Shown: positions 6,214 through 6,690 of the stretch, piece after piece | Numbering within the stretch: position 1 is the stretch's first letter | Layout: the number at the start of each line of letters is the position of its first letter | NCBI GenBank assembly: GCA_014435945.1 | Contig: GCA_014435945.1_4088.1 | Reading direction: 5' to 3' (one strand) | From: a phage | Length of the DNA: 64,000 bases | Notes under the pieces: model-generated | Seen by the model: the letters and a program-made list of their open reading frames with translations, nothing else | Database searches by the model: none | Told to the model about the DNA's origin: nothing | Translations under genes and position numbers: made by a program

Positions 6214-6690
6214 ATGATACATGAACACCTAGGTAATTTGTTTGAATTGTTCAACTCTGTTACTGATGATCAAACCGCGTTGCATATAATCGCTCATGGT
6301 TGTAATGCACAGGGTAAGATGGGTTCGGGTTTTGCAAAAGAACTAAGAAATCGTTACCCGATGGCATATGATGATTATAAAGCATATGAAAAGGAAATGG
6401 GATTTCTAAGAACAGGACAAATTTCATATTCTTCTATAAGTGATGATTTGCTTATCGCAAACTGCATTACCCAACAGTACTATGGTAATGACGGTTCTAA
6501 GTATGTAAGTTATGATGCAATCGATGATGTTTTCAAACAACTAAATTACTTATGTAACGTTGAACGCACTGTTCATGTACACTTCCCGAAAATTGGAGCC
6601 GATTTAGGCGGTGGTAACTGGAACGTTATCAAAGAAATCATTGACCACAGACTGGTTAATGCAGAAAAACACTTATACATTCTAAAATAA
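6214..6690 (+). CDS. macro domain protein (ADP-ribose binding/processing)
   Basis: 158 aa; HGCNAQGKMGSGFA and HFPKIGADLGGGNW resemble the two conserved macro-domain loops. Confidence 0.5.
   Translation: MIHEHLGNLFELFNSVTDDQTALHIIAHGCNAQGKMGSGFAKELRNRYPMAYDDYKAYEKEMGFLRTGQISYSSISDDLLIANCITQQYYGNDGSKYVSYDAIDDVFKQLNYLCNVERTVHVHFPKIGADLGGGNWNVIKEIIDHRLVNAEKHLYILK

Follow-up and report, generated by a model that had tools for sequence, protein, structure and literature searches.

Macrodomain and Nudix genes of an Asteriusvirus jumbo coliphage: a candidate for reversing ADP-ribosylation and a Nudix gene with a conserved, putative +1 frameshift

The DNA analyzed here (the window, 64 kb in length) belongs to an Asteriusvirus jumbo coliphage with a total genome of ~375 kb and is 99.7% identical to the phage vB_Ec-M-J. 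An initial annotation had identified in it a macrodomain gene (macro) and two genes for Nudix hydrolases (Nudix-1 and Nudix-2), and all three open reading frames proved genuine and correctly placed (Table 1). The arrangement described for them holds as well, in that Nudix-1 ends 820 nt before the macro gene begins, and Nudix-2, which had been assigned to the structural block, is flanked by virion structural annotations in vB_Ec-M-J.

Table 1. Features around the macro and Nudix genes, with positions in the 64-kb window
Feature	Position	Strand	Remarks
CCA-adding tRNA nucleotidyltransferase	3759..4874	+	Directly upstream of Nudix-1
Nudix-1, zero-frame segment	4950..5012	+	ATG and 20 codons, MRYSCGIIFYRDGQILIGHTT; first beta-strands of the Nudix fold
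+1 shift site ACA-C-GGA	5010..5016	+	P-site ACA (Thr), zero-frame A-site CGG, +1 codon GGA (Gly)
Nudix-1, +1-frame segment	5014..5394	+	GQNHWDLPKGK..., Nudix box, to the stop codon
Glutaredoxin	5384..5632	+	Directly downstream of Nudix-1, overlapping its end
Terminator-like hairpin	6173..6196	+	10-bp stem with a T-run after it; separates the Nudix-1 cluster from macro; consensus match only
Macrodomain protein (macro), 158 aa	6214..6690	+	Tk.4/AdfM family (PHROG 335), Gln-type TARG1/ALC1-like class
Nudix-2, 154 aa	46773..47237	-	PHROG 1198, NudI/MutT-like

The macro gene has a GGAG Shine-Dalgarno sequence 6 nt upstream of its ATG, and its pN/pS within the genus is ~0.15. Its product scores 20.4 bits against the Pfam Macro profile (PF01661), slightly below the gathering cut-off of 22 (T4 Tk.4 reaches 27.7 bits, and many homologs of the macro ORF lie above the Pfam threshold). 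Despite this score, the macrodomain assignment is secure, because PHROG 335 is the best match of both the macro ORF (E 3e-46) and T4 Tk.4 (1e-65), the PDB sequences BT1257 (E 8e-16) and SCO6735 (E 2e-11) are matched significantly, and an AlphaFold2 model (pLDDT 93.8, pTM 0.90) displays the three-layer alpha/beta/alpha macro fold, for which Foldseek returns a probability of 1.0 and TM values of 0.75–0.82 to BT1257, SCO6735, DarG, and TARG1. When sequence and fold are taken together, the nearest structures are BT1257, SCO6735, Poa1p, DarG, and TARG1.

The key residues of the macro protein are H28, N31, G37-S38-G39, Q87, G128, and D130. In a 52-sequence alignment (A1), H28, N31, Q87, and G128 are invariant, and they remain invariant or nearly so in 120 sequences; among these 120 homologs, N31, G39, and G128 never vary, while G37 is kept in 98 and S38 in 111. 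N31 aligns with N22 of DarG and N27 of SCO6735, and Q87 occupies the position of DarG K80 and TARG1 K84, which is likewise a glutamine in SCO6735 (Q85) and T4 Tk.4 (Q84). The loss of ADP-ribose-binding residues, named at the outset as the observation that would speak against an ADP-ribose role, is not what is found, in that H28, N31, the glycine-rich loops, and Q87 are all retained. At the same time, the protein is not a DarG antitoxin by its features: it scores 33 bits against the NCBIfam DarG equivalog (cut-off 250), carries Gln in place of Lys80, consists of a single 158-aa domain, and has unrelated phage genes as neighbors.

Nudix-1, when its two segments are joined, encodes a NudE.1-like protein of 147 aa that shares PHROG 1185 with T4 NudE, matches Pfam NUDIX (E 1e-11), and has an intact Nudix box (G-x5-E-x7-REUxEExGU) from G31 to Y53. 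The ORF originally called, 4981-5394, lacks the first beta-strand; the true start is the ATG at 4950, which lies in a different frame. Aligned with T4 NudE, the joined protein shows 38% identity (E 4e-20), and the alignment takes in the upstream-frame segment, which matches the N-terminus of T4 NudE. Through this homology, the link of Nudix-1 to ADP-ribose and NAD holds loosely: T4 NudE.1, a broad adenosine-diphosphate-X pyrophosphatase, cleaves ADP-ribose, Ap3A, FAD, and NAD and removes the cap from NAD-RNA (10.1101/2024.04.04.588121), and Nudix-1 would have the same range of substrates. An LC-MS/MS note concerns the Nudix protein of fENko-Kae01, in which the gene is uninterrupted. Packaging of the Nudix proteins into virions was considered and set aside, as the fENko-Kae01 lysate was only ultrafiltered (>300 kDa) and, according to its authors, cannot prove virion membership. 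Nudix and macro are not mentioned in the RaK2 virion-proteome paper, nor are Nudix, macro, a frameshift, or NAD genes in the fEgEco12 genome paper.

The new observation of this work is that, in every Asteriusvirus genome examined, reading Nudix-1 in full calls for a +1 frameshift at ACA-CGG-A. The shift would fall at 5012/5013, with C5013 as the additional base. Six Asteriusvirus genomes and one metagenome contig carry this site without any difference; relatives from other genera read ACN-ACN-GGN without the extra base, and the homologs in GAP32, RaK2, 7t3, fENko-Kae01, and Hallingskeid are uninterrupted. A scan of IMG/VR for the shift site returned only 121Q itself and no intact allele, and a metagenome scan gave 24 matches, 23 of which were chance 17-mers and one a true independent copy. 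The zero-frame codon CGG occurs in frame in 0 of the 18,888 codons of long ORFs in the window (counts by phase 0, 52, and 146).

Purifying selection acts on both Nudix-1 frames, the insertion being present in all of the genomes compared. In the upstream segment, variable sites fall 1, 0, and 7 times at the first, second, and third codon positions, and the comparison of the window with A4 gives pS 0.44 and pN 0.02; for the downstream segment, the values are pS 0.58 and pN 0.08. These figures bear on the principal alternative, according to which Nudix-1 is a pseudogene created by a 1-nt insertion in Asteriusvirus, or yields nothing but the truncated product that is annotated. The frame is indeed broken by one nucleotide, the annotated Asteriusvirus records examined all carry a truncated ORF of 131-137 aa starting at 4981/4984, and no frameshift-stimulating element was found. 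However, both segments are selected as described, and where the frames overlap, four of the five variable sites stand at second positions of the annotated frame, which is therefore non-coding there. Moreover, the annotated start has no Shine-Dalgarno sequence, whereas a conserved GAGA motif precedes ATG 4950, and the Nudix fold would be missing its first beta-strands in a truncated product. A pseudogene or a truncated product is thus considered unlikely, although it is the strongest of the competing explanations.

Full-length Nudix-1 would accordingly be made only upon a +1 ribosome shift at ACA-CGG-A; the predicted zero-frame product without a shift has 29 aa, and the predicted trans-frame junction peptide is DGQILIGHTTGQNHWDLPK. 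The ribosome would pause at CGG, after which Gly-tRNA would read the overlapping GGA; the incoming tRNA would probably bind out of frame in this way, because the P-site tRNA is unable to re-pair in the +1 frame. A quadruplet-decoding suppressor tRNA was rejected as the agent, given that the anticodon loops of the two tRNA-Thr(UGU) of the near-identical fEgEco12, the tRNAs for the P-site ACA, are of the normal 7-nt size. The 64-kb window itself contains no tRNA genes.

Nudix-2 begins 12 nt past the stop codon of a co-oriented gene annotated as structural and matches Pfam NUDIX with E 3e-15. Its top matches in sequence and fold are NudI, MutT, BdRppH, and Dcp2, the best fold matches being NudI/YfaO at 26-29% identity; its NCBIfam scores lie well below the equivalog cut-offs (NudI 32.5 vs 95, MutT 35.7 vs 148), and its nearest cellular homologs, annotated as MutT, contain PF14815. 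Dedicated ADPRases of the NudF/NUDT5/NUDT9 type are absent from the best 50 Foldseek matches, in which one single entry is related to ADPRases, a bifunctional NMN adenylyltransferase/ADP-ribose pyrophosphatase at rank 41. The ADP-ribose role first suggested for Nudix-2 is therefore not borne out, since its closest relatives are NTP pyrophosphohydrolases of the NudI/MutT type, i.e., the restriction to housekeeping nucleotides that had been named in advance as contrary to such a role. Nudix-2 would instead be a NudI/MutT-like pyrophosphohydrolase of nucleoside triphosphates, encoded in a late operon and not tied to ADP-ribose in particular.

The idea that macro and Nudix proteins process ADP-ribose has already been proposed for jumbo phages and myophages (PMC7824862, PMC9503650). 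For the macro protein of the window, the most likely role is reversal of the ADP-ribosylation of phage DNA by DarT2, with DNA the most likely substrate ahead of protein or a signaling nucleotide. Of the functions put forward by the initial annotation, the reversal of host ADP-ribosylation is thereby the best reading, because the binding and catalytic residues of the subclass are kept and the phage family is shared with T4 Tk.4/AdfM, which counters DarT2. The protein would be a single-domain ADP-ribosyl hydrolase in the Gln-type branch of the TARG1/ALC1-like class, together with SCO6735, BT1257, and T4 Tk.4. It would bind the ADP-ribose placed by the host toxin DarT2 on thymidine of single-stranded phage DNA, position the distal ribose by means of N31 and Q87, and hydrolyse the N-glycosidic bond, whereupon free ADP-ribose would leave and phage replication would restart; in this capacity it may serve as an orphan-antitoxin counter-defense resembling T4 AdfM.

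Published work on the relatives is consistent with this role. For instance, knockout of T4 tk.4 leads to sensitivity to DarTG2 (10.1101/2025.11.20.689424; preprint, genetic evidence), and SCO6735 strips DNA of ADP-ribose linked to thymidine and protects E. coli against DarT, its activity being lost in the Q85A and N27S mutants and substantially reduced in G128E (PMC9411070). DarTG is present in E. coli strains (PMC7003065). The PADLOC DarG model scores the macro protein and T4 Tk.4 similarly (39.5 vs 36.0 bits), and BLASTP aligns the two over 120 aa at 29% identity (E 4e-12). Given this identity, and given that macro lies closer to the uncharacterized BT1257 than to T4 Tk.4 (74.7 vs 47.4 bits), the shared PHROG is no proof of a common substrate.

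The phosphate loop introduces a further qualification. D130 of macro (IGADLGGG) stands at the position of the SCO6735 phosphate-loop glycine G128; among sequences of at least 50% identity, this position is Asp in 41 and Gly in 12, Asp forming the majority in the jumbo-phage clade and Gly prevailing elsewhere. In addition, the DNA-contacting K34 of SCO6735 is replaced by serine in macro (S38), as it is in T4 Tk.4. On account of D130 and of the serine in place of K34, the jumbo-phage clade may favor a different target, for instance ADPr on Glu/Asp of proteins, U-ADPr on RNA, or a soluble derivative. Compensation of the D130 charge was considered and rejected: an acidic residue at 130 is accompanied by K or R at 35 in 45 of 46 sequences (Fisher 4e-10), but many other positions split the clades at least equally well, and the co-occurrence is probably a phylogenetic signal rather than evidence for a salt bridge.

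Alternatively, the macro protein may act on soluble ADP-ribose derivatives (ADP-ribose-1''-phosphate, O-acetyl-ADP-ribose, or immune signals of the cyclic ADPR type), with Nudix-1 degrading the ADP-ribose released, as proposed for jumbo phages by the Aravind lab (PMC7824862, PMC9503650). This model agrees with the database annotation of the macro protein as a phosphatase, with significant matches in sequence and structure to yeast Poa1p (an Appr-1''-p phosphatase), with the hydrolysis of ADP-ribose by T4 NudE.1, and with the acidic D130, which would oppose binding of the DNA backbone at the phosphate-binding loop. It is nonetheless rather improbable, as Poa1p has Ser in place of the invariant Gln of the family, and the nearest characterized relatives, SCO6735 and T4 Tk.4, target or counter nucleic-acid modification of the DarT type. 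A phosphatase strictly of the Poa1p type is rejected, for only one of the three residues studied by mutation in Poa1p according to PDB entry titles (H23, S30, and F152) is kept, H23 corresponding to H28, while S30 is replaced by K35 and F152 by Gly.

Similarly, macro might remove ADP-ribose from proteins (Glu/Asp-linked) or from RNA and thereby reverse the action of host defense ADP-ribosyltransferases or tune that of the phage's own. SCO6735 and TARG1 also cleave protein-linked ADP-ribose and U-ADPr on RNA (PMC9411070, PMC13036486), and the loop difference at D130 suggests a shifted specificity; against this, no ADP-ribosyltransferase gene is annotated within the 64-kb window, and the anti-DarTG2 effect is the sole known phenotype of any phage member of the family, which makes a protein or RNA substrate doubtful.

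As a separate point, the macro proteins with Asp-130 in RaK2-like jumbo phages may have a substrate other than that of T4 AdfM. A bolder and equally doubtful conjecture takes the Nudix-1 shift as a switch for regulated recoding and not as a lesion that the phage tolerates. CGG is read by a minor host tRNA-Arg, and the waiting time at this codon would set the amount of the full-length NAD/ADP-ribose/NAD-cap hydrolase; if true, the switch would dose a potentially NAD-depleting enzyme or tie its output to the host tRNA pool, e.g., under tRNA-targeting defenses.

The initial proposal that macro and both Nudix enzymes form one coordinated module for clearing ADP-ribose or NAD signals is very improbable, for although the order CCA enzyme, Nudix-1, glutaredoxin, two further genes, and macro recurs in each of the jumbo-phage genera examined (Asteriusvirus 121Q and A4, GAP32 with 1 or 2 genes inserted, RaK2, 7t3, fENko-Kae01, and Hallingskeid) and ADP-ribose, the product of macro, is a substrate of NudE.1, the kept order reflects genome-wide synteny of relatives rather than specific linkage, three unrelated genes and the terminator-like hairpin part Nudix-1 from macro, the T4 homologs of these two genes are not adjacent but ~6 kb apart, and Nudix-2 lies 40 kb away on the opposite strand and belongs to another family. 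A promoter scan of 3500-9600 found 30 sites against 26 expected and is uninformative.

The favored interpretation, for which the chances are judged slightly better than even, is thus that the jumbo coliphage carries three accessory genes that are independent of one another, each with the role proposed for it above, rather than a single system. The ADP-ribose theme of the initial annotation applies to macro and, more loosely, to Nudix-1, and fails for Nudix-2 and for the three genes as a unit. Apart from the Nudix-1 frameshift, such a set of macro and Nudix genes is ordinary for large phages, and the consequences of the macro/Nudix finding itself are modest: the newly defined anti-DarT2 family of Tk.4/AdfM would extend to RaK2-like jumbo coliphages considered for therapy, and the clade-specific change from G to D in the active-site loop may bear on substrate specificity. 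The by-product of the analysis may outweigh the main finding in importance, as a conserved and selected +1 shift at a never-used codon would be a clean bacterial-virus case of recoding of the Ty3 or sponge-mitochondria type, and Nudix-1 is mis-annotated as a truncated ORF throughout the annotated records of the genus that were examined.

Among known systems, T4 Tk.4 (AdfM, anti-DarT factor) resembles macro as a single-domain phage protein of ~155 aa in PHROG 335; the HGCN, MGSG, TQ, and P-x-IGA-x motifs are common to both, as is the Gln at the position of DarG K80. The two differ in the phosphate loop, where T4 Tk.4 has Gly (IGAGIGKG) and macro Asp, and in genomic neighborhood, and the anti-DarTG2 phenotype is known for the T4 gene. 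SCO6735 of Streptomyces coelicolor and BT1257 of Bacteroides provide the closest solved structures, are likewise of the Gln-type TARG1/ALC1-like class, and conserve the H, N, Q, and first loop Gly of macro; however, they are cellular rather than phage proteins, with ~28% identity. The DarG macrodomain and PhiKZ gp104 AdfM, the latter a jumbo-phage orphan antitoxin, remove DarT2-derived ADP-ribose from DNA and have both the fold and the conserved Asn in common with macro (PMC13309987), whereas both are of the Lys type (FPTK) and macro carries Gln; the match of macro to PhiKZ gp104 is confined to a local stretch of 26 residues, and macro has neither the C-terminal DarT-binding domain of DarG nor an adjacent darT.

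For the Nudix genes, T4 NudE.1 is similar to Nudix-1 in size and in its intact Nudix box, but is encoded by a single continuous ORF, without the +1 frameshift that Nudix-1 requires in Asteriusvirus, and the neighbors differ (lysozyme e in T4, the CCA enzyme here). NudI (YfaO) and MutT of E. coli/Salmonella are closest to Nudix-2, which itself is found within a phage late structural gene block. Finally, the shift site resembles the +1 shifting reported at rare CGG_A/UGG_A codons of glass-sponge mitochondria and shifting of the Ty3 type (review PMC5009743). A single C placed directly 5' of GGA likewise creates a very rare zero-frame CGG there, and re-pairing of the P-site tRNA in the +1 frame is likewise precluded; Nudix-1 differs in being a bacteriophage gene for E. 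coli ribosomes.

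The phage behind the window is a jumbo E. coli myophage assigned to the genus Asteriusvirus; the 3500-9500 segment shows 99.7% identity to vB_Ec-M-J and roughly 86% to PBECO4, and the segment carrying the first Nudix gene (Nudix-1) is about 89% identical to that of phage 121Q. The three ORFs for which the initial annotation proposed a common ADP-ribose theme, one macro protein and two Nudix hydrolases, were all found where it had placed them. The observation therefore stands, and its interpretation is partly borne out by the retained residues of the macro protein and the NudE.1-like character of Nudix-1, whereas it is not supported for Nudix-2. 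As first given, the macro and Nudix finding is ordinary; a frameshift in Nudix-1 and a loop aspartate in the macro protein merit a small experimental follow-up.

Features of the macro and Nudix loci in the window
Feature	Coordinates	Strand	Remarks
Nudix-1, annotated ORF	4981-5394		Nudix box intact; begins at Pfam profile position 25
Terminator-like hairpin, strong	6173-6196		10-bp stem and T-run; shortly before the macro gene
Macro protein	6214-6690	+	158 aa; PHROG 335, PDB matches, AlphaFold2 model
Nudix-2	46773-47237	-	PHROG 1198, a family other than that of Nudix-1

In all annotated records examined, Nudix-1 is entered as an ORF shortened to 131-137 aa. A different frame, opened by an ATG at 4950, reads MRYSCGIIFYRDGQILIGHTT and then stops at 5037-5039, and the single-ORF versions of GAP32, RaK2, 7t3, fENko-Kae01 and Hallingskeid read ...GHTTGQ(S/E/K)HWDLPKGK.... 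One extra C (ACA ACA C GGA CAG) is present in six of six Asteriusvirus genomes examined, which span 83-99% DNA identity, and again on an independent 58-kb metagenome contig. Judged by these alignments, a full Nudix-1 needs a +1 frameshift at ACA-CGG-A, with the predicted shift at 5012/5013. The joined product (147 aa) matches T4 NudE with 38% identity (E 4e-20) in an alignment that starts within the upstream-frame segment, and with the two frames joined the PHROG 1185 match is better and the Pfam NUDIX profile more fully covered. Across the 63 nt that precede the shift, the first, second and third codon positions vary at 1, 0 and 7 sites, and comparison with phage A4 gives pS 0.44 and pN 0.02 upstream against pS 0.58 and pN 0.08 downstream; where the upstream frame overlaps the annotated ORF, four of five variable sites are second positions of the annotated frame. 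This selection pattern shows the upstream frame to be a translated one, and both frames are under purifying selection.

The zero-frame codon at the shift, CGG, is absent in frame from the 38 window ORFs of 150 aa or more (0/18,888 codons), inside which the trinucleotide occurs 198 times (phase counts 0, 52 and 146). AGG (11) and CGA (34) are rare yet used, unlike CGG, and ACA is heavily used (527/18,888). The shift is inferred to be of the hungry-codon type, occurring at CGG; the site shares its CGG_A layout with the +1 sites of glass-sponge mitochondria, in which a very rare CGG_A results from a C inserted 5' of GGA and has been interpreted as Ty3-like (PMC5009743). A search for a stimulatory element at the Nudix-1 frameshift found none. 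A quadruplet-reading tRNA was rejected, because both phage tRNA-Thr(UGU) have normal anticodon loops. In phage fEgEco12 (4988-5141 of its record L041, outside the window), two tandem, diverged tRNA-Thr(UGU) genes, identical at 57 of 74 positions, lie in a six-tRNA cluster; this tRNA reads ACA, the P-site codon of the shift. Translation-related genes are also grouped just upstream of Nudix-1, namely an HPF/RaiA-type ribosome-associated factor and a CCA-adding tRNA nucleotidyltransferase (1785-2117 and 3759-4874). The conserved +1 frameshift of Nudix-1 was reported neither in the frameshifting literature searched nor in the fEgEco12 genome paper; as far as could be found, it is new. Since T4 NudE.1 hydrolyses ADP-ribose, Ap3A, FAD and NAD and decaps NAD-RNA in vitro (10.1101/2024.04.04.588121), an ADP-ribose/NAD link for Nudix-1 is reasonable by homology, for an enzyme expected to be broad.

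The macro protein is a genuine macrodomain. Its Pfam Macro score of 20.4 bits is slightly under the gathering cut-off of 22; PHROG 335 matches at 3e-46, and PDB sequence matches include BT1257 (8e-16), SCO6735 (2e-11) and Poa1p (2e-6). The AlphaFold2 model is confident (pLDDT 93.8), and the nearest solved structures (BT1257, SCO6735, Poa1p, DarG and TARG1) are all of the TARG1/ALC1-like class, SCO6735 ranking third in PDB sequence and Foldseek searches alike. The database label "phosphatase" stems from Poa1p-like similarity; of the three Poa1p residues that have been examined by mutation, only one is retained. The gene has a good Shine-Dalgarno sequence and is under purifying selection within Asteriusvirus (pN/pS about 0.15), and the family is common, since tblastn against 50,697 phage records found relatives in about 2,000 of them.

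Loss of the ADP-ribose-binding residues, which would have told against the initial annotation, is not seen: H28, N31, Q87 and G128 are invariant in a 52-sequence alignment and invariant or nearly so in 120 homologs. N31 aligns with DarG N22 and Q87 with the catalytic K80 of DarG; a Gln at this position is shared with T4 Tk.4 (Q84), SCO6735 (Q85) and BT1257. SCO6735 cleaves thymidine-linked ADP-ribose on DNA and rescues E. coli from DarT; its Q85A mutant is inactive, N27S is nearly so, and G128E loses much activity (PMC9411070). The last residue, in the phosphate loop, aligns with D130 of the macro protein (IGADLGGG, codon 6601-6603). Because residue 130 is Asp in 41 and Gly in 12 homologs of at least 50% identity, as against 43 Gly and 2 Asp among more distant ones, D130 is a clade feature of RaK2-like jumbo phages rather than an isolated lesion, which suggests a shifted substrate preference. 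Acidic residues at 130 are nearly always paired with K/R at 35; compensation by the latter was dropped as an explanation, as many other positions divide the clades equally well.

Nudix-2 starts 12 nt past the end of a co-oriented gene annotated as structural and has homologs on other jumbo-phage contigs, its closest cellular relatives being annotated MutT, with PF14815. Its model is confident (pLDDT 91.8), and the best structural matches are NudI/YfaO (26-29% identity), then MutT, pointing to a housekeeping nucleotide substrate instead of the proposed ADP-ribose theme, an outcome that the initial annotation had named as telling against it. No dedicated free-ADP-ribose pyrophosphatase occurs among the top 50 structural matches, in which NudC ranks 9 and a bifunctional NMN adenylyltransferase/ADP-ribose pyrophosphatase 41; all equivalog scores lie far under their cut-offs. 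Nudix-2 also matches the PADLOC model PDC-S07, a candidate defence system (E 3e-13). An ATP-dependent (Lon-like) protease is annotated at 18677-20965 of the vB_Ec-M-J record L002, roughly window 50.2-52.5 kb, within the tail/baseplate block and on the strand opposite to its neighbours.

A two-step route, in which the macro protein would free ADP-ribose and a NudE-like Nudix enzyme would break it down, makes chemical sense and was put forward earlier (PMC7824862, PMC9503650). The related genera examined all keep the gene order CCA enzyme, Nudix-1, glutaredoxin, two further genes, macro, GAP32 having one or two additional genes; this reflects general synteny among relatives rather than specific linkage. 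Three unrelated genes and the terminator-like hairpin, with a TATAAAT motif (6165-6171) ahead of it, separate Nudix-1 from the macro gene, the T4 homologs of the two are about 6 kb apart, and Nudix-2 lies 40 kb from this region on the other strand.

The macro gene belongs to an already known kind, as jumbo-phage and myophage Macro and Nudix proteins were proposed by the Aravind group in 2021 and 2022 to counter NAD/ADP-ribose-based immunity (PMC7824862, PMC9503650), and a 2025 preprint reported that Tk.4-type macrodomains act specifically against DarT2 (10.1101/2025.11.20.689424). In the RaK2 and GAP32 records the macro ortholog is labelled as resembling "Tk.4" of T4-like phages; T4 Tk.4 and the macro protein share PHROG 335 as their best match, align with 29% identity over 120 residues (E 4e-12), and score about equally against the PADLOC DarG model (36.0 and 39.5 bits). 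According to that 2025 preprint, tk.4 is the sole T4 gene turning conditionally essential on DarTG2, and its clean knockout sensitised T4 to DarTG2, the gene being renamed adfM (10.1101/2025.11.20.689424). PhiKZ gp104, also named AdfM, has been shown biochemically to take DarT2 ADP-ribose off DNA (PMC13309987). The two AdfMs belong to separate lineages. With its FPTK motif, its catalytic Lys and an E of 1e-24 against Mtb DarG, PhiKZ gp104 is of the true DarG type, and it shares with the macro protein only a 26-residue local match.
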